NCBI GenBank assembly: GCA_964343875.1
Contig: CAYFJW010000004.1
Location: 18,395 to 82,394, forward strand
Reading direction: 5' to 3'
DNA length: 64,000 bases
Origin: Candidatus Woesearchaeota archaeon
GTDB lineage: Archaea; Nanobdellota; Nanobdellia; SCGC-AAA011-G17; UBA489
In this document: positions 4,181 through 48,151 of the stretch, piece by piece
Position numbering within the stretch: the stretch's first letter is position 1
How the letters are laid out: every line of letters begins with the position of its first letter
Translations under genes and position numbers: made by a program
Notes under the pieces: generated by a model
Database searches by the model: none
Told to the model about the DNA's origin: nothing
The model's input: only the letters and a program-made list of their open reading frames with translations

Positions 4181-4244
4181 GTTTCTGCGTGGAAAGTTGA
4201 TTATTTAAAACTTCCTATTTGTAATTACCTCAGAATGACAACAG

Positions 4245-4898
4245 TTATTTCTTCTTTGGTTCTGGCTCGGGCTCGGCCTCCTTTGGCTGTTTGACTTCGT
4301 TATCCTTGAAATAGGACTTTCCTTTCTCTGTAATGGCTATATAGGTCTGTTTGCCCTTTCTTAGCTTGTGGATGAATCCAGCATCTACGAGGATTCCAAT
4401 GTACTCAGAAACCGTGGATCTTACCTTGTCGTAGGATTTACCAGGGTAGAGGTCAGAAGCCAGCGTTTTTAGAGCAGTCCACTCTTGGCCGGACTCTCTT
4501 TGGAAGGCACCCAACCTAAAAAATATGGCTTTTTGTGTTTCAGTCAAGTCGTCCAAGGGGGTTCGTTCTATTCTCGGAGGTAATTTTTCGTTTTCATAGT
4601 CATAGTATGGTTTTTCTTTTGAGCTCTCTCGAGTTTTTGGCTGCTTTTGAAGGGAATTTTCCCTGTCTGCTAGGTAGGACATGACTTGGCCGATCTCCTC
4701 TATCCTGGATTCCATGTTTTTGAATCTGTCACTGTATTCTTCGTCCCTTGTTTTGAAAAAAGAAAGCCAATCACGGACTACTTTGATGTCCGACTTGATC
4801 CTTGTGAAGGAATGTTTCAAGTTTTCGGAGATTTGATTGACGTGATCGAGCGCTTTGTTAACTTCCGACCTCTTTTTTCCAAAGAACAAAAACCCCAT
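4245..4898 (-). CDS. Coiled-coil plus C-terminal winged-helix (MarR/TrmB-like) DNA-binding protein; paralog of 5516..6157
   Basis: C-terminal TETQKAIFFRLGAFQRESGQEWTALKTLASDLYPGKSYDKVRSTVSEYIGILVDAGFIHKL has a wHTH pattern. The N-terminal half is heptad-like and the tail is lysine-rich. Confidence 0.55.
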   Translation of the reverse strand: MGFLFFGKKRSEVNKALDHVNQISENLKHSFTRIKSDIKVVRDWLSFFKTRDEEYSDRFKNMESRIEEIGQVMSYLADRENSLQKQPKTRESSKEKPYYDYENEKLPPRIERTPLDDLTETQKAIFFRLGAFQRESGQEWTALKTLASDLYPGKSYDKVRSTVSEYIGILVDAGFIHKLRKGKQTYIAITEKGKSYFKDNEVKQPKEAEPEPEPKKK

Positions 4899-25702: not shown

Positions 25703-26242
25703 TTGGTTTCTCCACTATACGGTTCGATAGAGTTTATGAAATCCTTTGGGATTTTTGATATAGTTTTACCTTTCTTATTAGTTTTTACAGTTATATTTGG
25801 TATCCTTGAAAAGACGAAAGTTTTTGGGAAGGAAGGGGATAGTTCTAGAAAAAACCTTAATGCGATGGTTGCTTTTACTATTGCGTTCTTTGTTGTTGCT
25901 GCGACGCAGATAGTTGCGTTGATGCAGACTGCCTTACCTTATATGATGTTTTTGTTAATACTGATAATTATGTTTATGATCTTGTTTGGTTCTACAATTG
26001 GGGAGGGTGAGTTGAACCTTTGGGAACAGTTTACTAGTAAGAAAACAAAAGGGATATTCGCTTTTGGAATCTTCATTGCGATAATTGCTATTGTCCTTGG
26101 GGCGATGGGGATGCTTGAGAGCTTGATAGATTGGTTGTTTTTGCATGTTACAGGTCCTGTGCTTTCTACAGTGATTCTATTATTGATTGTTGGGATCTTT
26201 ATGTGGATTGTTGTTGGTGGCAAGGACGAGAAAAAGGAATAA
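25703..26242 (+). CDS. Paralogous 4-TM membrane protein, first of three tandem copies
   Basis: Shared N-terminal pattern FGIFDIVLPFLLVFTVIFGILEKTKVFG with the next two genes. Confidence 0.5.
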   Translation: MVSPLYGSIEFMKSFGIFDIVLPFLLVFTVIFGILEKTKVFGKEGDSSRKNLNAMVAFTIAFFVVAATQIVALMQTALPYMMFLLILIIMFMILFGSTIGEGELNLWEQFTSKKTKGIFAFGIFIAIIAIVLGAMGMLESLIDWLFLHVTGPVLSTVILLLIVGIFMWIVVGGKDEKKE

Positions 26243-26307
26243 TTATTCTATGCAAAAAGTATTAAAAGGGATTAGTCCTTGGAATATTGTTATGAGGTGT
26301 GGACTGA

Positions 26308-26865
26308 ATGGATTTTTATGAGCTCCTGGGGAACTTTGATCAAATAGGTGGTTTTGATCTGTTGTTACCCTTTATTCTTGTGTTTACTTTGGTGTTTGCA
26401 GTCCTGCAGAAGATTAATCTGTTTGGGAGTGGCAAGAAGAATATCAACATGATTGTTTCTTTGGTAGTTGCGATCTTCTTTTTGAACAATACTTACTTGA
26501 TATTCATACTTCAGAAGTTCTTGCCTAATGTGTCAATTATATTAATAGTGTTCTTGATGTTCTTGTTATTGATTGGTGTCTTCGGTGGTGAGACGGATTT
26601 CAAAGAGGGAATGCTTGGATGGGCATTTATAGTTTCACTAATTGCGATTGGTTTTGCATTGTTTTCAGATATGTTTAATCCTATGTCCAGCCAAGGCGGA
26701 GGAATATCTGCGTGGTGGTATGAACTCATTGGACCTGGAAACACTGGGATGGTTTGGGCATTGTTCTTTTTAGTGATATTTATATTCTTTATTACGAGGG
26801 ATCCTAATCCTGAAAAGGGATTTGGTCATTACATAGAACAGTTAGGGAAGAAGATTAAGAAGTAA
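26308..26865 (+). CDS. Paralogous 4-TM membrane protein, second of three tandem copies
   Basis: GGFDLLLPFILVFTLVFAVLQKINLFG parallels the first copy. Confidence 0.5.
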   Translation: MDFYELLGNFDQIGGFDLLLPFILVFTLVFAVLQKINLFGSGKKNINMIVSLVVAIFFLNNTYLIFILQKFLPNVSIILIVFLMFLLLIGVFGGETDFKEGMLGWAFIVSLIAIGFALFSDMFNPMSSQGGGISAWWYELIGPGNTGMVWALFFLVIFIFFITRDPNPEKGFGHYIEQLGKKIKK

Positions 26866-26866
26866 G

Positions 26867-27382
26867 ATGGCAACAATATTAGAAGCAAGCGGGTTGGGAA
26901 GTATCGTTAGTATGATCCTTGTGTTCTTGTTTGTTTTTGTGGTTGTTTTTGCACTGTTGAAAAAAGCTAAGTTTTTCGGTGGCGATGGATTTGATGCAAT
27001 TATTGCGTTTGTGTTTGCTACATTTACTATAATGGTTCCCGAGACTCAGGTTGTTGTTGGGAATTTCTTACCTTGGTTCTTCATATTCTTTTTGTTAGCG
27101 TTAGTTATATTCATGTTCTTTATGTTCATGGGTGTTAAAGGGGAGACTATTGGAGGCCTTGCTAAAGAGCCGTTTATACAAGTGATTGCTATCGGAGCTA
27201 TTATTGCATTGTTCTTTATTTCGATGACAAAGGCATTTGGACCTTTCTTGTTGGTTGATCCTAGTGCTACTGGATTTTGGGCAACCACTAAAAGATTTAT
27301 ATTTACTAGGCATTTCCTGGGCGTTGTAGTGCTGTTCTTTGTTGGTGCTTACTCTATTACCTTTTTGTCGGGTAATGATTAA
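26867..27382 (+). CDS. Paralogous 4-TM membrane protein, third of three tandem copies
   Basis: GSIVSMILVFLFVFVVVFALLKKAKFFG parallels the first two copies; starts 2 nt after the previous stop. Confidence 0.5.
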   Translation: MATILEASGLGSIVSMILVFLFVFVVVFALLKKAKFFGGDGFDAIIAFVFATFTIMVPETQVVVGNFLPWFFIFFLLALVIFMFFMFMGVKGETIGGLAKEPFIQVIAIGAIIALFFISMTKAFGPFLLVDPSATGFWATTKRFIFTRHFLGVVVLFFVGAYSITFLSGND

Positions 27383-30861: not shown

Positions 30862-33009
30862 GTGAAATTAATGCCTAAGAAAACTGATGACATAATTAGG
30901 GAGTATGAGAAGAAGCTTGAGGATGAGTATGGTCCTGGCTATGTTGAAGCTTTTGAGCCAGATTTGGTGAATAAAGAATATGAATTGTTTCGTTCTGAAG
31001 TTTTAGAGAGGAAGGTTACCAATTACGAGAAGTGGTGTTATGCTGCTGAAAAAATAATAAAGATTTCTCCATCTAAGAGGGACTTGCCGGAGTTAAAGAA
31101 GAGTATTGAAATTGCCCATTTGAATGTTACCCCTGAAGCTGCTGCTAGTTTTGGAGCTTTGGTTGCTTTTGGGTTGATACTTTTTGGTGTTTTGGTTATG
31201 GGGATAACTTATGCTTTTGGGAGTATTAGTTTTTTCTTTCCAATATTCTTGATTATTGCTGGTGCCTTGGCGATAAAACCTCTTAGCAATATTCCAATTT
31301 ATTTGGCCAATCGTTGGAGATTGGAAGCAAGTAATCAGATGGTTCTTTGTATTCTGTACATTGTTATGTACATGAGACATACAAGTAATTTAGAACATGC
31401 GGTTAAGTTTGCCGCAGGGCATATTGGGCCACCATTGAGTTTAGATTTTAAGAAAGTGTTCTGGGATATTCAAACTGAGAAGTATTTTAGTATTAAGGAA
31501 AGTTTGGACAAATATCTTGAGAACTGGAGAGATTATAATTTAGAATTTGTTGAATCTTTCCATTTAATTGAGGGTAGCCTGTATGAACCAAATGAGTCTA
31601 GAAGGGTTATGTTGTTAGAGAAAGCGTTGGAAGTTATGCTTGAAGGGACTTATAACAAGATGTTGCATTATGCACACAATTTGAAAGGACCCATTACATT
31701 GCTTTACATGCTTGGTGTGATATTGCCCATTTTGGGTTTGGTTATTTTTCCGTTGATTGGAAGTTTTATGGGTGGCGCTGTTAAGTGGTATCATTTGGGA
31801 ATGTTGTACAATGTTATTTTGCCGATTGTGTTGGTTATTATGGGGAGTAATATGCTTGCTAAGAGACCTACGGGTTATGGTGAGAGTGAACTGTTGAAAA
31901 GTAATCCCGAGTTTAAAGTTTATGAACAATGGGTTGTTAATGATAAGGTTGTTCCTGTAAGCCCGAAGGCTGCCAGTATACTGGTTGGCGGCGTGATTGT
32001 TTTAGTTGGTTTAATGCCTTTGTTGATACACTTAATTAATCCTGGTTATGAAATGTCTCTTGGTGCACTTGGTCCATTTTTAGATTACAAAGGCGAGAGT
32101 GGGCCATATGGTGTTGGCGCATTAATCATGGGGATGCTAATTCCTTTAGGAATTGCAATTGGTGTTTCAATGTATTACGGGATTAAGACCAATCGTTTAA
32201 TTAAGATAAAGAAAAAGGTTGATAATCTTGAAGAAGAGTTTAGTGGTGCTGTTTTTCAATTAGGGAATAGGATTGGTGATGGCATTCCTGCAGAAGTAGC
32301 CTTTGGTGAGGTTGCGAGGACAATGAGCGGGACTCCAACGGGGAACTTTTTTAGCACTGTTGATAGAAACATACGTAAGTTGGGTCATGGGATGAGCAAG
32401 GCTGTTTTTGATTCAAGAGTTGGCGCGATATTATTGTTTCCTAGTAATCTGATTCATAGCACTATGAAGGTTTTGGTTGAAAGTGCGAGAAAAGGTCCGA
32501 AGGTTGTTAGTGCAAGTTTGATTACCATCAGTAAGTATGTTGATAGAATAAAACAAGTTAATGAAAGGTTGAAAGATTTACTTGCAGATGTTTTGAGTAG
32601 TATGGTTAGTCAGATTAACTTTTTGACACCTTTGATTGCAGGTATTGTTGTGGGTGTTGGTAGCATGGTTACAACTATCATTGGTAAGCTCGGTTCCGCA
32701 TTTGATACTGTAGGGGGTGTTGGGGCAGAGGTTCCTTCAAATTTGGGTGCGCTTGCGAGCATAATGAATATAAAAGATGCAATTCCAGGTTACTTCTTCC
32801 AGTTGGTTGTTGGTTTGTATGTGTTAGAGATTACGATAGTATTGACAATACTAAGCACCAGCATTGAGAGAGGGATGGATAAAACTACTACGAGGCACAG
32901 GATTGGTAAGAATGTTAAGAAGAGCATGTTGCTGTATATGGTAGTTGCTTTGATTGGAGTGGTGTTGTTTAATTTGTTGGCAAATGCTGTTAGCTTCGCC
33001 CCATCATAG
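30862..33009 (+). CDS. FlaJ/TadC/PilC-like polytopic membrane platform protein
   Basis: 715 aa with more than 8 TM helices; positioned immediately after the ATPase as in archaeal type IV pilus and archaellum loci. Confidence 0.7.
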   Translation: MKLMPKKTDDIIREYEKKLEDEYGPGYVEAFEPDLVNKEYELFRSEVLERKVTNYEKWCYAAEKIIKISPSKRDLPELKKSIEIAHLNVTPEAAASFGALVAFGLILFGVLVMGITYAFGSISFFFPIFLIIAGALAIKPLSNIPIYLANRWRLEASNQMVLCILYIVMYMRHTSNLEHAVKFAAGHIGPPLSLDFKKVFWDIQTEKYFSIKESLDKYLENWRDYNLEFVESFHLIEGSLYEPNESRRVMLLEKALEVMLEGTYNKMLHYAHNLKGPITLLYMLGVILPILGLVIFPLIGSFMGGAVKWYHLGMLYNVILPIVLVIMGSNMLAKRPTGYGESELLKSNPEFKVYEQWVVNDKVVPVSPKAASILVGGVIVLVGLMPLLIHLINPGYEMSLGALGPFLDYKGESGPYGVGALIMGMLIPLGIAIGVSMYYGIKTNRLIKIKKKVDNLEEEFSGAVFQLGNRIGDGIPAEVAFGEVARTMSGTPTGNFFSTVDRNIRKLGHGMSKAVFDSRVGAILLFPSNLIHSTMKVLVESARKGPKVVSASLITISKYVDRIKQVNERLKDLLADVLSSMVSQINFLTPLIAGIVVGVGSMVTTIIGKLGSAFDTVGGVGAEVPSNLGALASIMNIKDAIPGYFFQLVVGLYVLEITIVLTILSTSIERGMDKTTTRHRIGKNVKKSMLLYMVVALIGVVLFNLLANAVSFAPS

Positions 33010-33069: not shown

Positions 33070-35472
33070 ATGGTAAAAGGGGTAAAGGACTTTATTTTGA
33101 ATGGAAGGACTCGTTTTGTCTTTTTGTTTTCTTTGGTTTCTTTGTTTGTTTTAAAGAGTGTTAATGCAGTGGTGTATTTAGGGCAGACTTATACTGGTTG
33201 GAGCGCTTTTGGCTATGGATTCAATGATTTGCAGAGTTTTTATTATGCTTATCCAGGCTGGATTGATTTTGTAGTGTTGTTTGCGTTGTTTTATTCTGCT
33301 GCGCTTGGTGTGTTTGGTAAGAAGTTTGAGGAGAATAATGCTGGAAAGGGATTGGCAGTTGCAATTGGTCTGGTTCTGTCTTTAAGTGTTGCTTTGTTTG
33401 AAGCTGCGCAAGGAATCTATATGTGGCAATGGGGTGCGCCACTTGTAGTTGTTGGTTTATTAGTTGCGGTGTTCTTTGGAGTGTATCATTTATCTAGGAA
33501 AATGAGGCTTGCAGGATTAACTGCATTTTTGTTGGCTGCGGTTATTACTTATTTGGTTTGGTTGGCAATTACTACTTGGACTGGCATGGGTCAAATGACT
33601 TTCATTAGTTTTACAATGGGTAATATTGATTTAGGTAATTGGTTGTTCTGGGTTTTAGTTGTTATTGGTTTGATTGCTTTGTTTGCATTGTTAAAGTCTT
33701 TGTTTTCTGGTGATGATTTCGGTGGCCGAGGACGACGTGGTCCTAGAGGTCCTCGTGGGGGTCCTGGACAGCCAGGTAGGACTGGAAGAAGTGGTAGGCG
33801 TGGCGGTAGAGGAGATCCTGGAGATAAGGGTCCGCATGGTCCAACTGGTGCTGAAGGGATAGTCGGTCCACCTGGCGATCCCGGAGGAAGAGGTCCGTCT
33901 CCTGTACCTGGTGTTCCTGGTGGAGGAACTACTCCTGGTGAACCCGGACAATTGGCGTTGCCTCCTGGTCCTGTTATGAAGGTGCTTGGTCCTGGTGAAC
34001 CCTGGAAAACACAAAAAGTTGATCCAGTTAGAATTAGAAGATTGGGCCAGATTTACAACAAGATAAGATCGCTTATAGGTAGGAATTCAAAATTGACATT
34101 ACAGTTAATCTCAGTTCTTCATGAATTGAAGAAGGGTGTTACTGATGAACCTTCCCTAGCAACTTCAGAAGGAAAGGTACAAAGAAGGATTGACAAATTA
34201 ATAAAAGAACTTACTTTGTTTAATAGGACATTGTTATCTAAGACTATAGACCTTGATGGTATTGAAAACATGCGTGCTTATTTTAAGGGCATATTGCTTG
34301 AAATGAATAAAATTATGAGAGAGCTTAGTGCAGTTTCTTCTCTTAAAGATTATATCAGGAGAGCTAACAGGATTGCACTTACTATTTGGGAAACGGACAT
34401 TAAGCAATTAAGTAAGGCTGTTCGTGTTCTTAAATCTGGGAGTAGAGAATATTTGGGGAATAATGTAGGTAAATTAACGATGCTCCAATTTGTACAAGTT
34501 TTAGTTGTTTGGAAAAAGAATTCTGGCCGGATTGTTAGAGGGGTTACTGATGGGCCTGGGGATGAGGGCGAGGTTCAAGGACATGATGTTGTCGCATTTT
34601 CTAAGGATATTTACAGGAAAATTGCTCTTGGTTGTCATACAGACAAAACTAGAGGGTACGACGAAGGAACAAGGGCAAGATTAAGAGCTATATTTGAAAG
34701 GGCAGTTCAAGCATATAAGGAAGGAGATCACCAGGAGTTAGTTAGACTTAGAGATGAGATGATTAGCATAATTGGCGATACTAAAAGTGGGGAAGGACCG
34801 AAGGCCTTAAAATCTGGGACAAGTATTGAGGCATTGGAAGATATTCTTTCTGTTCCAATTGCAATTCCAAGATCAAGAAGAGGGATCTTTGTAACAAAGA
34901 AAAAGATAAGGGAGCTTAATGTTCCCCAGTTTGCTTCTTATGTTTTGTTTTCATCAACATCTAATAGATTAAGTGATGCATATAAACTTAGGGAACAAGT
35001 GACTTCGGTGATTCCAAATGCCTTTACACAATTGACTGAAATGAGGAGACTTTTAGATAGGGCAAATTATTATGTTAAAAATTCTAGGAATTATCGAGCT
35101 TTCGTTGAACAATATGAGGAGTTGATGGCTCTTAAACCTAAGATTGATCAGTTGGCTAATGGTATGAAGGCCAATCGGTTGAATTCTGCTGCCAAAAGAG
35201 CATATACAAATCTTATTGAGAGTACTGAGTTTAATAGAGCCTTTTTGAAGAAGTTTGGACAGAGGGCAACAACCGGAGGTTGGGAGGTTGTATTTTCTGA
35301 TCCAAAGAAGGTTGCATTTATCCTAGAGTATCCTAGGAAAGATGGTGGCCAAAAGTTATTGTGGAGATATTTTAATTTATCATACGATGCATTGATTTCA
35401 CTGGATGCAATGCTGAATAAGTTGAAAGATGGTCCTGTTAGACAAATAAAGAAGGATTGGAGTAATCCATGA
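33070..35472 (+). CDS. Membrane protein with 20 consecutive collagen-like G-X-Y triplets and a long alpha-helical C-terminal domain
   Basis: About 5 N-terminal TM helices, then GGR GRR GPR GPR GGP GQP GRT GRS GRR GGR GDP GDK GPH GPT GAE GIV GPP GDP GGR GPS (aa about 216-275). The encoding DNA at about 33715-33900 is a strongly GC-rich island. Confidence 0.7.
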   Translation: MVKGVKDFILNGRTRFVFLFSLVSLFVLKSVNAVVYLGQTYTGWSAFGYGFNDLQSFYYAYPGWIDFVVLFALFYSAALGVFGKKFEENNAGKGLAVAIGLVLSLSVALFEAAQGIYMWQWGAPLVVVGLLVAVFFGVYHLSRKMRLAGLTAFLLAAVITYLVWLAITTWTGMGQMTFISFTMGNIDLGNWLFWVLVVIGLIALFALLKSLFSGDDFGGRGRRGPRGPRGGPGQPGRTGRSGRRGGRGDPGDKGPHGPTGAEGIVGPPGDPGGRGPSPVPGVPGGGTTPGEPGQLALPPGPVMKVLGPGEPWKTQKVDPVRIRRLGQIYNKIRSLIGRNSKLTLQLISVLHELKKGVTDEPSLATSEGKVQRRIDKLIKELTLFNRTLLSKTIDLDGIENMRAYFKGILLEMNKIMRELSAVSSLKDYIRRANRIALTIWETDIKQLSKAVRVLKSGSREYLGNNVGKLTMLQFVQVLVVWKKNSGRIVRGVTDGPGDEGEVQGHDVVAFSKDIYRKIALGCHTDKTRGYDEGTRARLRAIFERAVQAYKEGDHQELVRLRDEMISIIGDTKSGEGPKALKSGTSIEALEDILSVPIAIPRSRRGIFVTKKKIRELNVPQFASYVLFSSTSNRLSDAYKLREQVTSVIPNAFTQLTEMRRLLDRANYYVKNSRNYRAFVEQYEELMALKPKIDQLANGMKANRLNSAAKRAYTNLIESTEFNRAFLKKFGQRATTGGWEVVFSDPKKVAFILEYPRKDGGQKLLWRYFNLSYDALISLDAMLNKLKDGPVRQIKKDWSNP

Positions 35473-35509: not shown

Positions 35510-35932
35510 ATGGCAGAATTATTAATACTTCCGGCAATTTATTTGGGAGTAGTTATTGGGCTATATGAGGCAATTCTGATGCATAGGGATGTGAGTGTTC
35601 CTGCGCATAGATTTGGCCATATGATTCATGCTTTAATATTTGCATTGGTTGCAGTTTTTGCAACAATGAATGTTGACTTTGTATTTTCTGTAATTCCTGC
35701 ATTAGCTAATATCAAGTTTGTTGGAAACCCTTTAGTGTTTAGGATTGGAATTGGTATTATTGCTATGTTTAAAATACATGCAATTAGTGCGGCTGCTCCT
35801 GGAATGGCTGGTGGCAGTGTTGGTTTGAAGGAGAAGTGGAGTCATAGTTTTATTATCGGGGCGTTGATTGTTGCGGCACCTTACATATGGCCTTTTATTG
35901 AGCCAGCTGTAGGGTTCTTGCCAGGAATTTAA
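35510..35932 (+). CDS. Membrane protein, hypothetical
   Basis: 140-aa hydrophobic ORF. Confidence 0.4.
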   Translation: MAELLILPAIYLGVVIGLYEAILMHRDVSVPAHRFGHMIHALIFALVAVFATMNVDFVFSVIPALANIKFVGNPLVFRIGIGIIAMFKIHAISAAAPGMAGGSVGLKEKWSHSFIIGALIVAAPYIWPFIEPAVGFLPGI

Positions 35933-35933
35933 A

Positions 35934-36185
35934 ATGTTTGAACTTTTGAGTGTGGCTTCTTATTTACCATTTTTATTAGTGCCTACTGTGTTGATAATTG
36001 TAATGTTGTGGGAACTGATTTGGAAGGGATTTGCTCTCTGGAGATCTGCGAAGAATGGGCAGAAATATTGGTTCATTGCAGTTTTAATAATAAACTCTGT
36101 AGGAATATTGCCAATTATTTACTTGGCTTTCTTTTCTGGAAGAAAACCTAATAAAAGGACTGGTAAGAAAGTTAAAAGAAAGTAG
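35934..36185 (+). CDS. Small membrane protein of the PLD-nuclease N-terminal (PLDc_N) type
   Basis: LIWKGFALWRSAKNGQKYWFIAVLIINSVGILPIIYLAFF fits the PLDc_N small-membrane-domain pattern. Confidence 0.45.
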   Translation: MFELLSVASYLPFLLVPTVLIIVMLWELIWKGFALWRSAKNGQKYWFIAVLIINSVGILPIIYLAFFSGRKPNKRTGKKVKRK

Positions 36186-36734
36186 TTATTTCTTTTTATC
36201 GTGTGCGTGATGTTTTCCTGTTGTTCTTTCAAAGTATGGGAGTATTTTAACAAACCTTGGAATTCTTGAAATTGGTCTGATAAATCGCATTGCAAACCTT
36301 GATCTTGATACTTTTCCTAGTTTTTCTGCTTCACTTACAATCCTTGCTGTTTCTTTTTCAACAGCGGTTACTTCTTTTATTCCAATACCTGCGTGTAGTG
36401 CTGATTGACTCTCTTGCAATGTGTCAGAGAACCTGAATAGTAAATATGCTTCTTCTGCCGCTCTTAGGAATAAGTAAAAGGGAAATACTGCAATTATGTC
36501 AAGCCAGTAACTTCTTATGAATGTTTTTACCTTTCTTACTCTTATGAACTTGAATATAAGGTCTATTACAAAAAGGGATATTATTGTGATGTCTGCAATT
36601 TCTATCCAATGCTCGTAAGCGTGTGCGATATCTTTGAAGAAGAAAGTGATTATGATCACAACTAAGAGAGCTAGTAATGCGTATGGAATTAATTTGTCAA
36701 CTAAGTGCTCTAGCTTGTGAAACCCCTTTTTCAT
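36186..36734 (-). CDS. Voltage-sensor-domain-like membrane protein without a pore domain
   Basis: S3-like YWLDIIAVFPFYLFL and S4-like SRSRFAMRFIRPISRIPRFVKIL with basic residues at roughly every third position; the ORF ends 20 aa after S4. Confidence 0.5.
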   Translation of the reverse strand: MKKGFHKLEHLVDKLIPYALLALLVVIIITFFFKDIAHAYEHWIEIADITIISLFVIDLIFKFIRVRKVKTFIRSYWLDIIAVFPFYLFLRAAEEAYLLFRFSDTLQESQSALHAGIGIKEVTAVEKETARIVSEAEKLGKVSRSRFAMRFIRPISRIPRFVKILPYFERTTGKHHAHDKKK

Positions 36735-36913: not shown

Positions 36914-38071
36914 ATGGTGGTCTTGACTAAACTTAAAAAAAAAGGAGATTTAAGACATAGTACTTTAATATTACTTATTCTTGCTGGGGTGGGACTAATC
37001 ATTTACTCTTTCTTTTTTGCAGATGTTAAAGAGATTATTGAGACGACTACAGAAGATGAGGTTTGCAGAACGAGTGCTGCTTTAAAGACTAAAACAAAGG
37101 GACCAGTGGGCACGGAATCTCCAGTTAGCTTAAAGTGTGCTATTAATGACTTTAAATCAGATGCTAAATCAAAAGAGGAAGTCAAGTTAGAAATTGCTAA
37201 AGAGATGTATCGTTGTTGGTATAAATATGGGGAGGGCCAGTTAGATTTTTATGATAGTTGGGATTTTGGTGTAAGTGACACTCATTGTTTAATCTGTTCA
37301 AGAATTAAGTTTGATGAAGATGTTGAAGAAATAACCTTTGGAGAATTTGGTGCTTATTTGAACTCTCCATTGCCAGGAAGGGAAGAAACTTTTGCGGAAT
37401 ATTTTACAAAAACACCTCACGCTAAGATACAAATAGGGCCCAAACCTGGAGAGGGTACAACTGCAAGTTCTTTGATGGAGCTAGATAAAGGAACATATGT
37501 TGTTTTTAGAGTGAACAAGCATAATGAAGATAACCAGGCGATTGCTTCTTTGTTTACAAGCGAAGAAGCGGATTTATCTTATACTGCTTCCGGTGTGCTT
37601 GCTGCAGAAGGCGCGGTTTATCAGGGTGCTAGAAGTTATGCATTGGGTGGTGAGGTTATTGGTGGTTTCCAAGATGCGAGTGGAAATTTGTTTTTTTCAC
37701 ATGCGGATGATGCTGGCAAATATTTTGTGAGGGATGCTTCTGGAAAGTTTGTATCTGGTTTTGGATCGACAAAGTTCAATTCTATTGCTGAAATGAATAG
37801 TTTTGCAGTTGGTAAAAATCTGAAGGTTGTTTCAAAAAGCTCTGCTAGGACATTGCTCCGGAAAACTGCTAATCTTGGTGAGAAAGCTGCAATAGGTGTT
37901 GCTTCAAAAGTAGTTGGAAAGAAGGTTGCGGGAAAGCTTATCCCTGTTGCCGGATGGGCGTTGGCAGTTTATGATGCAGTTAGTGCAATAGCGTGGGCAG
38001 ATGAGCTTCACCCAGCGGTTGTGCTTTATGGGGTAAATGATATAAATGCTGCCTGTGATACATTAGCATGA
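36914..38071 (+). CDS. Secreted or membrane-anchored protein, hypothetical
   Basis: N-terminal TM/signal anchor LILLILAGVGLIIYSFFF; 385 aa; Gly/Ala-rich C-terminus. Confidence 0.45.
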   Translation: MVVLTKLKKKGDLRHSTLILLILAGVGLIIYSFFFADVKEIIETTTEDEVCRTSAALKTKTKGPVGTESPVSLKCAINDFKSDAKSKEEVKLEIAKEMYRCWYKYGEGQLDFYDSWDFGVSDTHCLICSRIKFDEDVEEITFGEFGAYLNSPLPGREETFAEYFTKTPHAKIQIGPKPGEGTTASSLMELDKGTYVVFRVNKHNEDNQAIASLFTSEEADLSYTASGVLAAEGAVYQGARSYALGGEVIGGFQDASGNLFFSHADDAGKYFVRDASGKFVSGFGSTKFNSIAEMNSFAVGKNLKVVSKSSARTLLRKTANLGEKAAIGVASKVVGKKVAGKLIPVAGWALAVYDAVSAIAWADELHPAVVLYGVNDINAACDTLA

Positions 38072-38080
38072 GGTTTTTAT

Positions 38081-38215
38081 ATGGAAGTTGGTGAGTTAGC
38101 AGGAATTTTAATTTTTATTACAGTACTGGTAATTTTAATTTTTTTATTAACTGGTGCAGGAGATAAAATGTTTAGTTTAACTGATAGGCTTAGGGAGTTG
38201 TTGATTTTTAGATGA
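38081..38215 (+). CDS. Small hydrophobic protein (44 aa), not in the ORF track
   Basis: MEVGELAGILIFITVLVILIFLLTGAGDKMFSLTDRLRELLIFR; sits in the gap before the pilin genes. Confidence 0.3.
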   Translation: MEVGELAGILIFITVLVILIFLLTGAGDKMFSLTDRLRELLIFR

Positions 38216-38355
38216 TGCTTGGGAAAAAAGGAATGGATCTCATGGTCGGAAGGCTGGTTAAAATATTGATTGTTATCCTTGTTTTAGTTGTTATTTTTTA
38301 TTTTTTAAAAAGGGTTTCTGATGCGGGAAACCTCTTTTTAGGGATGTTTGACTAG
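38212..38355 (+). CDS. Short pilin-like protein (47 aa) with the MxLGKKG class-III-signal-like N-terminus, not in the ORF track
   Basis: MMLGKKGMDLMVGRLVKILIVILVLVVIFYF. Its first 22 nt (atgatgcttgggaaaaaaggaatgg) are nearly identical to the start of the next gene at 38392. Confidence 0.4.
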   Translation: MMLGKKGMDLMVGRLVKILIVILVLVVIFYFLKRVSDAGNLFLGMFD

Positions 38356-38391
38356 CATAATGTTTAAAAGGATAAGAGTTGTTATTTTCGG

Positions 38392-40101
38392 ATGGTGCTT
38401 GGGAAAAAAGGAGTGAGTCTTCCTATAAATCTGATAATTATTATAATTATTGGACTTTTTGTTTTTGGGGCAGCTTATTTTGGTTTTATTAAACCTTCAC
38501 AAGAAGGAAGTAGCGTATTTGGAGATCAGCTTGATGCGTTTAAGGATAAAAAATTTAGCTTAATGGATTTTGATACGCTAACAAAAGAAGAAAAACAAAA
38601 AATTGCAGAGGATAGTCCTCGGTCTATTGTAGAAAATACACTAAACTCTATTGATGGTTTAATTCCTGGAGACTGTAATAGGGCTAAGAAGATTGCGGAG
38701 TTACTGAGGAATGAGAAAAAAGTATCTGGCTTTGATAAAGATTTTGAACTTACGGTTGCTGATATTGAGATACTGGATGATCTGATCCAAAAAGCTGATG
38801 GTTGTATCAAACAAGGAGGGGTTGATTCTATTGATGCACAAATTAGAAATATCAATGGTTTAATTAAATCTGGAGAGGACGGGTTAGGGTCTTGCAGTAG
38901 TGCAAAGTTAATTTCTGAAGGTCTTCTGAGTAGCGGGGTTCAGAGAAGTGATGGGGCGGTCGTAATGCCAGACCAATCTCAAGAACTCCAGATTAAAGCT
39001 GCAATTGAAAGGGCAGACCTTTGTATCGAGGTTTATGAGGTGCCTTTGAGAGAAGAAAAAGAAGAAATAAGGAAGGCAAATGATAACCTAATAGCTGAAA
39101 AAGAATGGTATGGTGTGTTGTTGAAGGATTATGATGCCGCCCTTAAAAGATTTAAACTAGATGTTCCAAGAGTCTTTGATTTTGAGAGTGAGTGTAGTAA
39201 TGAGAATAAAAACCAGTGGGAACTGTTATCTGGAAGGACACAAGATACTAGGACTAAGGTTGTAGGAGAGGAGGGTGATTATTCTGGTTTAGATAGGAAG
39301 GAAAAAGAAATTATATTCTCTCTTGACGATCAAGCAGATTATTTTAATTTTGTTTGTAAGATGCGGGATGGAGATTGTAAGAGGTCTTATTATTCTCCCT
39401 CTAAATTTTTTGAGTTTTCTGATGTAGATTTACCTAGGGAATTGAAATCTGAAGAAATATATGCTGTGTACAAATTAGAAGAATCTCAATGTTATAAGGG
39501 TAAAAAAGATTTTGTTAATTCATGGAAAAGTTTTGAAGATGTTAAAGAATCTGATAAAGATCAAAGCTTGTATACTGCCTTTTTTAGTGATTATATTTCA
39601 ATGTTGAATGTGGATATTTTAGATTATAGCTTTGCTATGATGAACAGCATGAAATATGTTGAGGAGAAAATCACAAGTTATGGTGGGAATGATGATGAAG
39701 AACTTGCGGCATTTAGGAATGATAATATTATTGGTTGCCCATGGGACTTTTCCGATTATGATGAGAATATCAATAGCAATCCTGAGCATTGTAGTAGCTT
39801 TAACTATGCTGTTGTGAGCAAGTTTTTGGGTCCCTATGGATTGGATATATTGGATGACTCTCTTAGTGGGTCTGAACAGTTGTTGTTAGCTGTTGAAGAG
39901 GGATGGATACTTGATCCCGTATTATGTTATTGGAGAACTTCGGGGGACAATACTTGTAATTCTTGTAAGTATGGTTCTTATCAGGGGAAGTTAAATAGCT
40001 GTGGAGAATATTTAGAACAGAGTACTTGTGAATTGAATTCTTGTGGTCAGAATGCTCCAGGTGGTTGTAGGTGGACTGGTTCGAAGTGTATTGAGAGTTA
40101 G
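38392..40101 (+). CDS. Large pilin-like / surface protein with class-III signal peptide and Cys-rich C-terminus (candidate adhesin)
   Basis: MVLGKKG|VSLPINLIIIIIIGLFVFG N-terminus; 569 aa; more than 20 Cys, concentrated C-terminally. Confidence 0.55.
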   Translation: MVLGKKGVSLPINLIIIIIIGLFVFGAAYFGFIKPSQEGSSVFGDQLDAFKDKKFSLMDFDTLTKEEKQKIAEDSPRSIVENTLNSIDGLIPGDCNRAKKIAELLRNEKKVSGFDKDFELTVADIEILDDLIQKADGCIKQGGVDSIDAQIRNINGLIKSGEDGLGSCSSAKLISEGLLSSGVQRSDGAVVMPDQSQELQIKAAIERADLCIEVYEVPLREEKEEIRKANDNLIAEKEWYGVLLKDYDAALKRFKLDVPRVFDFESECSNENKNQWELLSGRTQDTRTKVVGEEGDYSGLDRKEKEIIFSLDDQADYFNFVCKMRDGDCKRSYYSPSKFFEFSDVDLPRELKSEEIYAVYKLEESQCYKGKKDFVNSWKSFEDVKESDKDQSLYTAFFSDYISMLNVDILDYSFAMMNSMKYVEEKITSYGGNDDEELAAFRNDNIIGCPWDFSDYDENINSNPEHCSSFNYAVVSKFLGPYGLDILDDSLSGSEQLLLAVEEGWILDPVLCYWRTSGDNTCNSCKYGSYQGKLNSCGEYLEQSTCELNSCGQNAPGGCRWTGSKCIES

Positions 40102-40138
40102 AAACTTTTAAATACATCAAAAAATGTGGAGATAACAG

Positions 40139-40558
40139 ATGAGAAGAATTGGTGTTTTGGGAAGGTATTTTAAGGATAAGAGGGGTGTAGAACTTACTCT
40201 TAATACAGTTATAATTGCTATTCTTGTTGTGCTTGTTCTTATTGTTCTTATTGGATTTTTCCTTGGAGGGACTGGGAAAGCTAAATCACAGATACAAGAT
40301 CTTTTTGGTTCAAGTACTAGTGCTTCTTCGGTGAGTATTGCGATTGAACAGTGCAAGATCTATTGTGATCAAGTTAAGGATTCTGGTATGACTGCTGAAC
40401 AGGCTAAAACATCTCTTTATTGTACGAAAAGTTTTAAATTAGACACTAATGGGGATGGTGTGGCAGATTTAGAGGGCGGATCGGATAGTAAGGAGATAGA
40501 TTACAAATGTAGTGGTCCTCCTTTGTCCGTTGTGTGTAATCCGGTCGTAACTTGTTAA
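40139..40558 (+). CDS. Type IV pilin-like protein (class-III signal peptide)
   Basis: FKDKRG|VELTLNTVIIAILVVLVLIVLIGFF; Cys-containing C-terminal domain. Confidence 0.55.
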   Translation: MRRIGVLGRYFKDKRGVELTLNTVIIAILVVLVLIVLIGFFLGGTGKAKSQIQDLFGSSTSASSVSIAIEQCKIYCDQVKDSGMTAEQAKTSLYCTKSFKLDTNGDGVADLEGGSDSKEIDYKCSGPPLSVVCNPVVTC

Positions 40559-40613
40559 ATAATAAATGGGGTTTGCTCAATAAGTTTATAAGTGTGTGAG
40601 CTGTCTTTGTGAG

Positions 40614-41129
40614 ATGTTTAATGGCAAGAGGGGACAGTCCATAGGAATGTTTGAATCTATTCCTGGTATCCTTCTTGGGGCTATAATTACTATTGCAATT
40701 GTGGGTGTCATTGCAGCTTTTTGGACTCTGTTTTTCAATACAGGAGGGATTGATTCTACAACGAGGAATACTTTTGATTTGGTTGTTAATGATATTTTAG
40801 ATATGCAGGGTTTAGATGAGCCATCTAGAAATGTTAATATTCAGTTTGAAGATGAGTACACATTGGTTGCGTTTAGTAAGGATTCATGGAGTGTTGGGGC
40901 ATGTAGGGGTCTCGAAATTGTTAGGCCCTTAAAAAGCTGTGAGGGGGCCTGTATCTGTATTTGCATGAATGAGCAAGGAGAAAATATGTGCAATGTAAAG
41001 AATGTAATCTGTAGGGATTTTGATAACATTGATTTGGATTTTGAAGGAGAATGTAATCTAATTGATGGAACTGGTGAGCCACAAAGTATTCAGCTTAGAC
41101 AAACAAACAACAAGTTCAACATCACTTGA
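40614..41129 (+). CDS. Type IV pilin-like protein, likely starting at MFNGKRG
   Basis: NGKRG|QSIGMFESIPGILLGAIITIAIVGVIAAF. Confidence 0.5.
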   Translation: MFNGKRGQSIGMFESIPGILLGAIITIAIVGVIAAFWTLFFNTGGIDSTTRNTFDLVVNDILDMQGLDEPSRNVNIQFEDEYTLVAFSKDSWSVGACRGLEIVRPLKSCEGACICICMNEQGENMCNVKNVICRDFDNIDLDFEGECNLIDGTGEPQSIQLRQTNNKFNIT

Positions 41130-41170
41130 TTTATCAAAAACCATTTAAGGTTAAAGTCTATCTTTTTGGT

Positions 41171-41560
41171 ATGAATAAAAAAGGGACTTCGTTATGGTAT
41201 ATCTGGCTCGTTCATTTTTTCTTGGTAGTGGTTATATTTTTAACACTCTATGGTAAGGTTGTAGCAAGTAAGGATGATACGGGTTATAACTTAGATTTTT
41301 ACGCAAAAGATATAGCTTATGGGGTTGAAGGAATGTTGTGGGCAGATGGAGATATTTCTTATGTATACCCACTCAAAGAGAAATATGATATCCAAATTAA
41401 TAATGATATTGGGCTTGTTTTTGTGAAAAAGGGTATGGCTCAGGAAAGTTATCCTTTTAGGGTGCGACCTGGATTCTTGGTGAAGGTTGAACCTTCTTTT
41501 TTGGATGGAGAATTAGAGAATCCTTATTTGATTAGTAAGGTGGAGAGTGAAGTCACATGA
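41171..41560 (+). CDS. Pilin-like protein, likely starting at MNKKG
   Basis: MNKKG|TSLWYIWLVHFFLVVVIFL. Confidence 0.45.
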   Translation: MNKKGTSLWYIWLVHFFLVVVIFLTLYGKVVASKDDTGYNLDFYAKDIAYGVEGMLWADGDISYVYPLKEKYDIQINNDIGLVFVKKGMAQESYPFRVRPGFLVKVEPSFLDGELENPYLISKVESEVT

Positions 41561-41970
41561 GTTTTATGACTACAATGATGATGATTAAAGCGATTGCAGC
41601 TGTGATCATAGTTACTGTTTCTTCTTTTGTTTTTGTGGCTATCCTTGGCAGTCATTTAGGGAGAGAAGTCTATACAGAGGATATTGAATTTTCTTTGGCA
41701 AAAGAGCACGTAGTTAATGTTTTTACAGAGGATGGTGTGACTACAAAAAAAAGTTGGGATGAGTTTGAGATGATGGAAGATCCTAGGTTTGCCATGAAGG
41801 TGGAACTTGGGGAAGAGAGTTATATTTCTAATTCTCGGCTTTATGAATATGGAGGTCTTTGTTCAATTGATGGGGCCTTTATTATGTGTAGTCCGGAATT
41901 CAATGACTTCTATTTGGTTGATGGTGATTTAGAAAGCGCAAAGCTTAGTGTGGTGATTGAAATTGGATAA
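41557..41970 (+). CDS. Pilin-like / membrane-anchored small protein
   Basis: N-terminal hydrophobic helix IKAIAAVIIVTVSSFVFVAIL; start overlaps the previous stop. Confidence 0.4.
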   Translation: MSFMTTMMMIKAIAAVIIVTVSSFVFVAILGSHLGREVYTEDIEFSLAKEHVVNVFTEDGVTTKKSWDEFEMMEDPRFAMKVELGEESYISNSRLYEYGGLCSIDGAFIMCSPEFNDFYLVDGDLESAKLSVVIEIG

Positions 41971-42439
41971 GAAGGGTCTGTTTGGAATATCTGAAACATT
42001 TGCAATATTCTTGTTAGTAATTGCTTTTGTTGGCTTTTGGCTTGCTTTTGAGATCGCAGATAGTTTTGGCTCTGGAGATGGGGAGTTGGTTTCATATGAA
42101 ATTGAGGAATCTAAAGAGTATGGCCTGGTGTTTTTAAAAACACCTTTAGAAATTGATGGTATTAAGATGACTTTTGCAGATTTAATTGTTGAAAGTGTGG
42201 AAAGTAAAGATTATGAACTACTTGAAGAATCTTTGGATGAACAATTTGATGAGTCTGAGATTTATTGGTTGGTCTTAGTTCATGATTCTGAGGGTAATCT
42301 GGTTAAAAAATTAACAAGATCTGGATGGTCTTCTAAGGGCGGGCAGAGGGAAAATATTCAGGAAATTAGGGTTCCTGGTTATAATGAAGATGAATTGAGA
42401 ATAAGTCTAAGATTAACTGGGGGAGAGAGGCTAGTTTAG
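41957..42439 (+). CDS. Pilin-like protein (class-III signal peptide)
   Basis: LDKKG|LFGISETFAIFLLVIAFVGFWL. Confidence 0.5.
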   Translation: MKLDKKGLFGISETFAIFLLVIAFVGFWLAFEIADSFGSGDGELVSYEIEESKEYGLVFLKTPLEIDGIKMTFADLIVESVESKDYELLEESLDEQFDESEIYWLVLVHDSEGNLVKKLTRSGWSSKGGQRENIQEIRVPGYNEDELRISLRLTGGERLV

Positions 42440-43261
42440 ATGGCATTGAATTGTTTGAAATCAAAGAAAGGACTTCTTATTGAAGGGACTGCAATAGTAA
42501 TCGTATTTCTCTTAAGTACAGCTATGGTTTATTTGTTGTGGGATAATACTGAGAGTCATGAAGAATTAAAGATTGGACAGATGTTGTTGGATGTTTATAG
42601 GGTAGAGGAAAAAGTAGAGGAATTTGAATACTTTTTTGTGAAAAGTGGCGAATATTCCTTGTTAAATGGACTGAAAAATAATATCAATGTTGGTCTGCTT
42701 GATGGTACTAAATGTAGTGTTCTATATGACTTGGAAAAGGGTGAAGAATGTTATATTGAGAATTTAATTGATGTTTTTGGAGAGAATGTTGCTGAAAAAA
42801 CGAGTGAGCATTTCATAGAAGAATTTGATAATAGTGTGTATGGTTTGAATTTTAAAAAAGTGAGATTTAAAACCCAAAAAGTGAATAAGGAATTAATTTT
42901 AAATATTAAAAGTGATGAGAAAATTGATTTTGGTAGGGATGCTGAGAGAAAAATGGTGTATAATGTTTCAATAGACTTTAATACTAAACTAGAATTTGCT
43001 TTTGATGAGTATCTTAAGATGATTACACCATTAAAAAATAATTTAGCTTGTTTGGAAAGTCTGAGTGATATAAACTCTGAGGGTTCAGCAGTGAGTAATT
43101 GCCTGAATGCCTACCCAGAATTTTCGAATTTAAAGAAAGAAGGAGGGATCTTATCGTTTGATTATACTGTTAAAGGTGTTTTATTTGAAAAGAAATTAAC
43201 TGGGCCTTTTAGATTGGATATTGAGGGGTTCAGGAGGGCTACGATGGCCAGTATCGCCTAA
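42440..43261 (+). CDS. Pilin-like protein (class-III signal peptide), 273 aa
   Basis: KSKKG|LLIEGTAIVIVFLLSTAMVYL. Confidence 0.5.
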   Translation: MALNCLKSKKGLLIEGTAIVIVFLLSTAMVYLLWDNTESHEELKIGQMLLDVYRVEEKVEEFEYFFVKSGEYSLLNGLKNNINVGLLDGTKCSVLYDLEKGEECYIENLIDVFGENVAEKTSEHFIEEFDNSVYGLNFKKVRFKTQKVNKELILNIKSDEKIDFGRDAERKMVYNVSIDFNTKLEFAFDEYLKMITPLKNNLACLESLSDINSEGSAVSNCLNAYPEFSNLKKEGGILSFDYTVKGVLFEKKLTGPFRLDIEGFRRATMASIA

Positions 43262-46910: not shown

Positions 46911-46992
46911 GAAGAACTAGTCGAATTATTGGCCCAACTTTAGGAAATGCCTTTGCCAGAATATCTTTATTGACTTAGTTAAACAAGATAAG

Positions 46993-47064
46993 TAGGCGAG
47001 CGGAGAATTGAACTCCGGTCTTAGTCTCCGCAGAACCACGTACTATCCACTATACTACTCGCCT
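46993..47064 (-). tRNA. tRNA-Arg (anticodon GCG)
   Basis: Minus-strand sequence AGGCGAG-TA-GTAT-AGTGGATA-GTAC-G-TGGTT-CTGCGGA-GACTA-AGAC-CGGAG-TTCAATT-CTCCG-CTCGCCT-A folds into a cloverleaf. It has a 7-bp all-Watson-Crick acceptor stem, a D-loop with GG, U33, anticodon GCG, purine 37, a 5-bp T stem with TTCAATT loop, and a 4-nt variable loop. CCA is not encoded. Confidence 0.75.
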
Positions 47065-48151
47065 TTTTCATTTTTCTAATTTTAGCTGTATTCTTGGACC
47101 CAATCTCTTTGATCCATTTTTTTAACATTGTTGGACCATTCAACGTAATGGTGTACTTATAAACTGTGGGGATGTATCCAAGCTTTCTGAACATGCTGTG
47201 TAGCTGATCTATTAATCTTTTAGATTTTATTGTTATTGAAATTACTGGGTACCTCCTGTCCCTAAGGTAGATGCATCCATCTGTATCAAAGAGACCTCTG
47301 ATGAAGTGGAAGTAAATCTTTCTATTCCTTGTATCTAGTACTTTCTTAGGAATTTTTAGCTTTCCAACTTTTTTTCCTGTGGGAAGTTCTAGTTCCTTGT
47401 TCTTGAATTCACAAAGTGCCTTTGAATATATCTCAAATCCACATACACTATTGAGATGCATTAATCTTAAGTCTAAATTGTATAATTTTTTGTATAATCT
47501 TAGCAGGTGGCTTGTGAAATATTCTTTTTCCGTTTTGTTACATTTAACAGAAAAATAATTTTTTGTAGATAAGCATCCATCTCCCATGTGCACTCCTATT
47601 TCCTCGGCTAGTTCTTTTGACATAACCTCTGGAAGTGTCAGCTTTTTACATTTATCATGTTTACTAAAGCTTATTTTCTCTGAATTGAAGAAAACTTTCT
47701 CATTTGTGAAATAATTTTTGTTAGACTTTTCTAACTCTTTGGACTCTAACTCCCTCTTTTTTATTTTTCCTTGGACGGTCATTTTTATTAGGGCCTTTCC
47801 ATGCCTTTTCCATATCGTGTTTTTAACACATTTTGCTTTTTGCCTCATCAAATTTGAGTAGGCTTCTTCTCCAAGCTTTTTCCTTTGACATTGAGCAGAT
47901 CTTTTTCCACCAATCTTTCCTCCTTCTATGGCTCCCCAATTATTATCTTTTTTATCTAATATCTCACTTGGCTTTATTTCTGAAAGAATCAAGAAATCTG
48001 GGATATATCGATTTTCGTATCTATATCCCTTGAGTGTTTTGAAGTTAATTTTTAGCTTTTCTGCTAATTCTTTTAATGTTTTTGCGTTGTTTTTCTTCTT
48101 TAAAATACGGAAGAGCTTTTCTTTAGACTGTAGAGATATTAGAACTCTCAT
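47021..48151 (-). CDS. Free-standing double-motif LAGLIDADG homing-endonuclease-like protein
   Basis: Two LAGLIDADG motifs about 100 aa apart (IGVHMGDGCLS and IRGLFDTDGCIYL); basic N-terminal region; 376 aa. The last 14 codons overlap the 5' half of the tRNA-Arg on the same strand. Confidence 0.75.
   Translation of the reverse strand: MRVLISLQSKEKLFRILKKKNNAKTLKELAEKLKINFKTLKGYRYENRYIPDFLILSEIKPSEILDKKDNNWGAIEGGKIGGKRSAQCQRKKLGEEAYSNLMRQKAKCVKNTIWKRHGKALIKMTVQGKIKKRELESKELEKSNKNYFTNEKVFFNSEKISFSKHDKCKKLTLPEVMSKELAEEIGVHMGDGCLSTKNYFSVKCNKTEKEYFTSHLLRLYKKLYNLDLRLMHLNSVCGFEIYSKALCEFKNKELELPTGKKVGKLKIPKKVLDTRNRKIYFHFIRGLFDTDGCIYLRDRRYPVISITIKSKRLIDQLHSMFRKLGYIPTVYKYTITLNGPTMLKKWIKEIGSKNTAKIRKMKKASSIVDSTWFCGD

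Follow-up and report, generated by a model that had tools for sequence, protein, structure and literature searches.

What does an uninterrupted run of 20 collagen-like Gly-X-Y triplets do in a membrane protein encoded within an archaeal type IV pilus-like locus? The question is raised by a stretch of 64,000 nucleotides (nt) from a Candidatus Woesearchaeota archaeon (assembly GCA_964343875.1, contig CAYFJW010000004.1), referred to here as the window, in which an open reading frame (ORF) at 33070–35472 on the forward strand encodes a protein of 800 amino acids (aa). A preliminary description of this DNA had suggested that the run belongs to a trimeric stalk or spacer of a surface filament or attachment apparatus. 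Our analysis points in another direction: we consider it reasonably probable that the run is the periodic form which a hypervariable Gly/Pro tether of basic character takes in this lineage, placed on the cytoplasmic side of the membrane in an accessory subunit of a type IV filament-like machine.

The ORF translates to 800 aa as first described, and the count of exactly 20 consecutive triplets was confirmed. The run is uninterrupted at aa 218–277 (triplets 1–10: GGR GRR GPR GPR GGP GQP GRT GRS GRR GGR; triplets 11–20: GDP GDK GPH GPT GAE GIV GPP GDP GGR GPS) and is terminated by PVP. Its first half is an Arg-rich RG block, with 11 Arg among the 33 residues of aa 218–250, and its second half is neutral to acidic. 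Arg is found at Y in 7 of the 20 triplets, and Pro at 11 of the 40 X/Y positions (27%). When aa 213–310 were shuffled 100,000 times, the longest run obtained was 12 triplets and a run of 20 was reached in 0/100,000 shuffles; all six frames of the window contained no other Gly-X-Y run of at least 6 triplets. The sharp GC spike reported earlier for this AT-rich genome was also observed, GC being 0.54–0.61 around the run vs 0.37 as the window mean. By codon position, GC within the run is 0.825 at positions 1 and 2 and 0.22 at position 3 (GC3), the latter vs a background of 0.33 in the genes of the window, and the choice of Gly, Pro and Arg codons is broadly host-like; the spike derives entirely from amino-acid composition. 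The identical 800-aa protein is present on 13 contigs, two independent ENA assemblies (ERZ930065 and ERZ930066) match the window at all 2403 nt of the gene, and the flanks of the run align with orthologous DNA. Taken together, the Gly-X-Y run is real, non-random and native to the host genome.

Relatives of the protein were collected by several searches. Word-index searches yielded only four close relatives; the search with the N-domain returned only one protein (P0005), and the search with the C-terminal domain alone returned nothing, missing even the query itself. A GTDB species-genome scan gave one genome only (JABIKK010000005). An exhaustive search of representative proteins gave 881 proteins, most of them collagen-like and matching aa 216–290 only; among the best 152 of these matches, 41 have the N-terminal membrane module in common and a few others share the C-terminal domain only. 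When metagenomes were scanned for the family motif Yxx[YS][PGA]GW[IF]DF, 16 more loci were obtained; the related contigs originate from marine metagenomes. In all related loci with enough flank the gene order is the same, namely the ATPase, a 715-aa polytopic membrane protein, this gene, a 140-aa membrane protein, a DUF5652 protein and an Ion_trans-like protein. Sequence identity between the neighbours and their counterparts in the window is mostly 71–94% and drops to ~50% in L022, the most distant locus. The membrane module of the 800-aa protein is 28–83% identical across loci, its cytoplasmic parts are often undetectable, and the ORF start MVKGVK is kept in orthologs. Because the gene order is constant in the loci with enough flank, the protein can be assigned to the pilus-like apparatus, as had been proposed: it directly follows the ATPase and the 715-aa protein in each of them, and co-occurrence with a FlaI homolog is seen as adjacency to the ATPase in every related locus with upstream flank. 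These comparisons strongly support the view that the 800-aa protein is a positionally fixed, fast-evolving component of the pilus-like locus.

The linker that follows the last transmembrane (TM) helix is of low complexity in nearly all family members, and Gly-X-Y is the exception, with at least 6 triplets in only ~6 of ~41 members. In the closest relative (L006), which is 69–83% identical in the flanking domains, the linker reads GGR GPR GWR GRR GGR before an assembly gap and GPD GGP GGP GPD GGP GGP GPD GGP GPD GGR GPS after it, at least 5 + 11 triplets in total, so that the periodicity is kept and the sequence is largely different from that of the window. In P0004, 8 G-X-P triplets are followed by four GTGGP units. 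Other linkers are repetitive without the triplets of the window (GGGGP three times in L013, KDP seven times in L018, GGE six times in L012), that of P0027/L020 is Arg/Gly-rich and not of the Gly-X-Y type ('GRVGRGERFFGGEGSAGGRGRGRR'), and those of P0003, P0006, P0008 and L011 have no periodicity and carry Arg/Lys/Trp-rich motifs such as RWPxWxKPW. Among distant members, Gly-X-Y runs occur at the same position in P0036 (15 triplets), P0038 (9), P0119 (9) and P0041 (6). On the sequences compared here, what is conserved is a juxtamembrane tether that is basic, rich in Gly/Pro and prone to repeats, and Gly-X-Y periodicity comes and goes. The preliminary description had itself named a Gly-rich linker with unconserved triplets as the finding that would speak against a collagen domain, and this is largely the situation in the family, in which syntenic orthologs carry non-collagen low-complexity linkers.

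Short-unit repeats are obvious in the orthologous linkers of L006, P0004, L013 and L018. Tandem Repeats Finder detected no DNA tandem repeat in 33721–33900; since none was found, the array is not recent, and recent DNA slippage as the sole origin of the run was rejected. In four members (P0006, P0008, P0009 and L011), the place of the RG-rich Gly-X-Y block is taken by a juxtamembrane motif rich in Arg and Trp (roughly RWPxW[LM]KPW[RK]L), which looks like a membrane-interface anchor. In the L006 contig, a run of N lies inside the orthologous linker (~4240–4340) and the gene was called as two pieces. Short-read assembly fails on such Gly/Pro repeats, and linker lengths in public assemblies are therefore unreliable.

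On which side of the membrane the linker lies was judged from hydropathy and loop charge. Six hydrophobic segments were found (aa 15–33, 64–82, 95–113, 122–140, 149–168 and 190–211), and no hydrophobic segment was found after aa 216. The first segment ends in [V/A]-x-A, a signal-peptidase-type site, in 16/16 aligned family members; aa 1–33 are probably a Sec signal peptide, or otherwise TM1 with the N-terminus inside. Cleavage there would leave five TM helices in the mature protein, in agreement with the roughly five N-terminal helices counted at first. The mature protein would begin with an outer aromatic/Gly-rich segment bearing a YPGWIDF motif. The numbers of Lys+Arg in successive loops of this protein are 3 / 0 / 3 / 0 / 3 / 0, followed by 11 in the 49 residues past the last TM helix, and the means per loop over 16 family members are 2.8 / 0.06 / 3.2 / 0.25 / 2.25 / 0.5. 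The positive-inside rule is the established basis for reading loop charge as topology. Because the Lys+Arg pattern alternates, the predicted topology is N-in/C-in, and everything after aa 211, including the Gly-X-Y run, is predicted to be cytoplasmic. Two features further downstream, a J-domain-like segment and a C-terminal domain that also occurs in proteins with no N-terminal signal or hydrophobic segment on inspection, both suggest the cytoplasm as well.

The ~490 aa that form the C-terminal part are predicted to be almost all helical, close to the 500 aa of helical sequence first estimated. In an AlphaFold2 (AF2) monomer model of the full-length protein, based on a four-sequence alignment (mean predicted local distance difference test score, pLDDT, 60), the membrane part is helical at low confidence. 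The linker (aa 209–311) has pLDDT <35, which is expected for a flexible tether and for a triple helix and is only consistent with either. It is followed by a predicted bundle of four long helices and by two further helical modules (aa 505–570 and 618–798). The first of these resembles part of a J domain. When seven family segments were aligned by hhalign with six canonical J domains, the probability was 95% and the score 41.6, ~12 standard deviations above column-shuffled controls (n=400; 10.4 +/- 2.5, maximum 25.7). A profile search of the PDB with the seven segments recovered ~20 J-domain chains in the correct register, with weak scores (E 0.008–1). The Pfam J domain (PF00226) matched the ortholog P0002 only, at 13.5 bits vs a threshold of 27.8, and gave no match to the protein of the window. 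The invariant HPD is HTD in the window copy; it is HPD in P0002, P0003, P0007 and P0008 and YPD in P0004 and P0010. No helix I is evident in the segment, its AF2 model (pLDDT 86) is a three-helix bundle rather than the four-helix J fold, the top 50 Foldseek matches of this model in the PDB were generic three-helix bundles with no J domain among them, and no DnaK motif was found in the 64-kb window. We regard the J-domain resemblance as a lead, not an assignment.

The C-terminal domain of ~210 aa also occurs in P0028, P0033, P0044 and P0055, which on inspection have no N-terminal signal or TM segment. It is a mobile module, which in other archaeal lineages ends Ig-like-repeat proteins (the same four). 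In loci L027 (7118–9247) and L028 (8001–10568), the genes for P0044 and P0033 directly follow a gene for a multi-TM, Ig-like-repeat protein with a signal peptide and many NxT sequons. They lie near ThiF/ThiS/ATP_bind_3 genes and not beside a T2SSE ATPase, which shows that the C-terminal domain is not confined to pilus loci. In Pfam scans of the C-domain proteins and of distant members of the family, a papain-like domain in P0056 was the only match.

From these observations, we propose that the 800-aa protein is an accessory subunit, specific to its lineage, with which an archaeon of the Woesearchaeota type (DPANN) equips the membrane part of a type IV filament-like machine. After signal-peptide cleavage, the conserved five-TM module would be embedded next to the platform. 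Through its Arg-rich first part, the linker would keep the C-terminus cytoplasmic and may contact anionic lipid head groups; its remainder would keep the helical module away from the membrane and close to the ATPase/platform complex, where this module might contact the ATPase or other partners. A spacer role for the Gly-X-Y segment is plausible. Its conformation is probably extended, flexible and polyproline-II-like, and a collagen triple helix would not be required. Such linkers probably grow via in-frame slippage of 9–27-nt units, the Gly-X-Y form being a lineage-specific outcome.

Several points weigh against this proposal. All 20 Gly are intact despite diversification at X and Y, in DNA without a tandem repeat, and the perfect periodicity of the closest relative, with a largely different sequence, suggests selection on Gly at every third position in this sublineage. 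Arg at Y and Pro content favour triple helices without hydroxyproline, as in bacterial collagens. The runs of P0036 (15), P0038 (9) and P0119 (9) recur at the same position in distant members of the family. The topology is predicted, not measured, and proteins exposed at the surface also typically diverge fast in sequence. In some distant members of the family, the linker is followed by Ig-like repeats or a papain-like domain, and domains of these types are more often extracellular.

The alternative that survives best is a collagen triple helix on the cytoplasmic side, in which three copies of the protein would trimerise via the Gly-X-Y run and a rigid rod would set a constant spacing between the membrane and the helical module. 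With a rise of 0.286 nm per residue in the collagen helix, 60 residues give a rod of ~17 nm. The 20 triplets that no shuffle matched, the Gly kept at every third position while X and Y diverged (a periodicity held in the closest relative), and the 7 Arg at Y with Pro at 27% of X/Y positions are all in its favour; the related contigs are marine, and a cold habitat, if that is where the organism lives, would favour a helix of marginal stability. On the other side, triplets are absent from most orthologs in the same slot of the locus. The Collagen profile of Pfam (PF01391), proposed as a check in the preliminary description, scored 23.8 bits, below its gathering score of 27.2, and the NCBIfam models of Scl1/Scl2 gave ~26 bits vs cutoffs of 325–400. 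No trimerisation domain was recognised in the 800-aa protein, and the module next to the run is a predicted intramolecular four-helix bundle.

The triplets themselves also bear on this alternative. Counted simply as uninterrupted (Gly-X-Y)n with n of at least 6, the run reaches 20. Four of the 20 triplets have Gly at X (no. 1, GGR; no. 5, GGP; no. 10, GGR; no. 19, GGR). Archaeal collagen-like domains have already been catalogued bioinformatically, and Gly at X or Y is treated in that work as a helix-disrupting interruption that sharply reduces stability (PMC11923368); under this strict definition, the longest run is 8 triplets (11–18). With a Pfam score below threshold, a predicted location other than the surface, triplets that are not conserved in orthologs and Gly at X, we would not file the run as a member of the collagen-like proteins. 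We regard a cytoplasmic triple helix as unlikely, and the specific form in which it trimerises the accessory subunit on the cytoplasmic face, as a rigid strut of ~17 nm that links the membrane module to the J-like helical module, as slightly less likely again. If it does exist, it could have arisen more than once, given the same-position runs in P0036, P0038 and P0119.

An RG/RGG-type segment that forms condensates or binds DNA or RNA at the base of the machine, for instance when nucleic acid is taken up, is improbable. The composition of aa 218–250 fits such a segment, as do the Arg/Gly-rich linkers outside the Gly-X-Y type in other members (P0027/L020 among them). This fit is purely compositional, with no conserved RGG spacing; the Lys/Pro or Trp/Arg motifs of other orthologs look more like membrane-interface anchors, and the locus gives no sign of taking up nucleic acid.

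Still less probable is the reading from which we started, in which a trimeric collagen stalk or spacer lies outside the cell, as part of a surface filament or of an attachment organ that makes contact with other cells or a host. The gene does lie within a pilus-like locus and diverges quickly, the best matches among the NCBIfam models are Scl1/Scl2, the collagen-like proteins known from prokaryotes are structures of the cell surface, and Ig-like or protease domains follow the linker in some distant members. Against it, the C-terminus is placed inside by the count of six hydrophobic segments and by a Lys/Arg pattern that alternates in 16 homologs, and the cluster of 11 Arg/Lys right after the last TM helix would oppose translocation. 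The J-like segment downstream, the C-domain homologs that on inspection have neither N-terminal signal nor TM segment, and linkers in which the triplets are not conserved likewise contradict an external stalk. Finally, an artefact of assembly or sequencing (a chimera or a GC-rich read from foreign DNA), to which the sharp local GC spike and the poor assembly revealed by the N-gap in the linker of the closest relative might point, is refuted by a GC3 of the run below the gene background with broadly host-like codon choice, by the intact reading frame, by the identical protein on 13 contigs and two independent assemblies that are nucleotide-identical across the gene, and by flanks that align to orthologous DNA.

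Table 1 Features of the 800-aa protein and of the surrounding locus, in window coordinates.
Feature	Position	Strand	Basis
T2SSE secretion ATPase (FlaI/TadA-like), 760 aa	28576..30858	+	T2SSE Pfam E 1e-13; FlaI, TadA NCBIfam E ~1e-33
715-aa polytopic membrane protein, presumed platform	30862..33009	+	conserved partner; position and architecture
Whole ORF, 800 aa: putative signal peptide and 5 TM, Gly/Pro/Arg linker, predicted cytoplasmic helical module	33070..35472	+	
aa 1–33: basic n-region and hydrophobic core ending VNA	33070..33168	+	[V/A]-x-A in 16/16 family members; hydropathy
aa 34–211: conserved membrane module, 5 TM helices, without Pfam family	33169..33702	+	
aa 212–310: low-complexity Gly/Pro/Arg linker	33703..33999	+	G 35%, P 21%, R 12%; AF2 pLDDT <35
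aa 218–277: 20 uninterrupted Gly-X-Y triplets	33721..33900	+	ORF translation
aa 311–489: predicted long-helix four-helix-bundle module	34000..34536	+	AF2 pLDDT 80–90
aa 505–570: J-domain-like helix II - H(T/P)D - helix III and one more helix	34582..34779	+	hhalign
aa 585–798: C-terminal helical domain, ~210 aa	34822..35463	+	
140-aa membrane protein and 83-aa DUF5652 protein, conserved downstream partners	35510..36185	+	
182-aa Ion_trans-like membrane protein, conserved in locus	36186..36734	-	
8 ORFs, most with KKG/KRG and hydrophobic N-terminus (pilin-like, class III signal-peptide-like)	36914..43261	+	by-eye reading of translations

The genes around the 800-aa ORF are listed in Table 1. The preliminary description had placed the ORF directly downstream of a FlaI-like ATPase and a FlaJ-like platform gene. 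The position was correct, and so was the ATPase, a T2SSE/FlaI match by hidden Markov model (HMM) whose best NCBIfam matches are FlaI and TadA and which is 73–94% identical in full-length matches across the related loci. For the FlaJ identity of the 715-aa neighbour, no such support was found: this protein has no T2SSF/FlaJ Pfam match even at an E of 10 and no PDB sequence match. It is a presumed platform by position and architecture only. It may be very divergent or represent a different platform family; in most related loci it is 71–94% conserved. Of the named relatives of the locus, the closest belongs to a marine metagenome-assembled genome, 'Candidatus Woesearchaeota' SI054_bin47, in which the ATPase and the 715-aa protein are 94% identical. 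The ORF had also been placed upstream of a pilin cluster. Downstream ORFs with KKG/KRG N-termini are indeed recognisable by eye; they have no HMM support, no prepilin peptidase was identified, and three genes lie between them and the 800-aa ORF. One of the pilin-like proteins (38392–40101, +; 569 aa), with KKG and a hydrophobic stretch at its N-terminus, is very rich in Cys in its C-terminal region and gave no match to Pfam.

The 182-aa protein covers only positions 11–114 of the 241 in the Ion_trans profile. Its gene is arranged tail-to-tail with that of the DUF5652 mini-protein (35934–36185, +), and the pair is kept in most related loci with downstream flank. Upstream of the ATPase, three consecutive small polytopic membrane proteins of 179, 185 and 171 aa (25703–27382, +) are kept in related loci, and an LPF(L/I)LVFT-type motif is common to the first two. 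A paralogous relationship between the membrane module of the 800-aa protein and these three proteins was rejected, hhalign probability being <1% for all three. Elsewhere in the window, genes for PolD DP1 and DP2, Orc1/Cdc6 and LonB are present and mark the DNA as archaeal. A 376-aa ORF (46992–48151, -) contains a LAGLIDADG_3 homing-endonuclease-like domain (47021–48151), and its 3' end overlaps the only tRNA of the window, tRNA-Arg(gcg), at 46992–47064.

If the run is a form of a variable tether, it brings nothing new in structure: collagen can be mimicked by Gly/Pro linkers that are prone to slippage, and Gly-X-Y counts alone would overcall triple helices in metagenomic proteins. The known kind would be a collagen-like low-complexity linker, and what is new would be its predicted place on the cytoplasmic side of an unannotated family of pilus-locus membrane proteins. 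The gene family is fast-evolving and occupies a fixed slot between the motor and presumed platform genes and the pilin-like genes of Woesearchaeota-type DPANN archaea. With its conserved five-TM module and possible J-domain-like segment, it is a concrete candidate for an accessory subunit. Surface filaments of these small-genome archaea are thought to mediate host attachment. Should a cytoplasmic triple helix be real after all, it would extend the range of places where collagen-type helices are known to operate to an intracellular, membrane-proximal and archaeal setting.

Among known systems, the run most resembles the prokaryotic collagen-like proteins (PF01391; Scl1/Scl2 of Streptococcus, BclA of Bacillus, Bucl of Burkholderia), which likewise have uninterrupted Gly-X-Y without hydroxyproline, Pro and charged residues and often Arg at Y. 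Collagen, Scl1 and Scl2 are its best HMM matches, and hundreds of collagen-like proteins match aa 216–290. Those proteins are secreted or surface-anchored, usually have a trimerisation domain and carry longer arrays, whereas the run described here is predicted to be cytoplasmic. The J-like segment shares with J-domain proteins (PF00226) the alignment of helix II, HPD and helix III, and differs from them in its sub-threshold Pfam score, its HTD/YPD variants, the lack of an evident helix I and its generic three-helix model. In Escherichia coli DjlA, the J domain lies on the cytoplasmic side of a membrane anchor, and the segment in the 800-aa protein would be placed likewise. In function, the closest resemblance may be to membrane-anchored cytoplasmic scaffold subunits such as FlaX of the crenarchaeal archaellum and bacterial PilM/PilN/PilO. 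These are encoded beside secretion ATPase and platform genes and combine a membrane anchor with a helical cytoplasmic part and poorly conserved sequences, as the 800-aa protein appears to do. The likeness does not extend to a detectable relationship in sequence or fold, and the 800-aa protein has five or six TM segments rather than one, together with a low-complexity linker, a J-like segment and a separate C-terminal domain.

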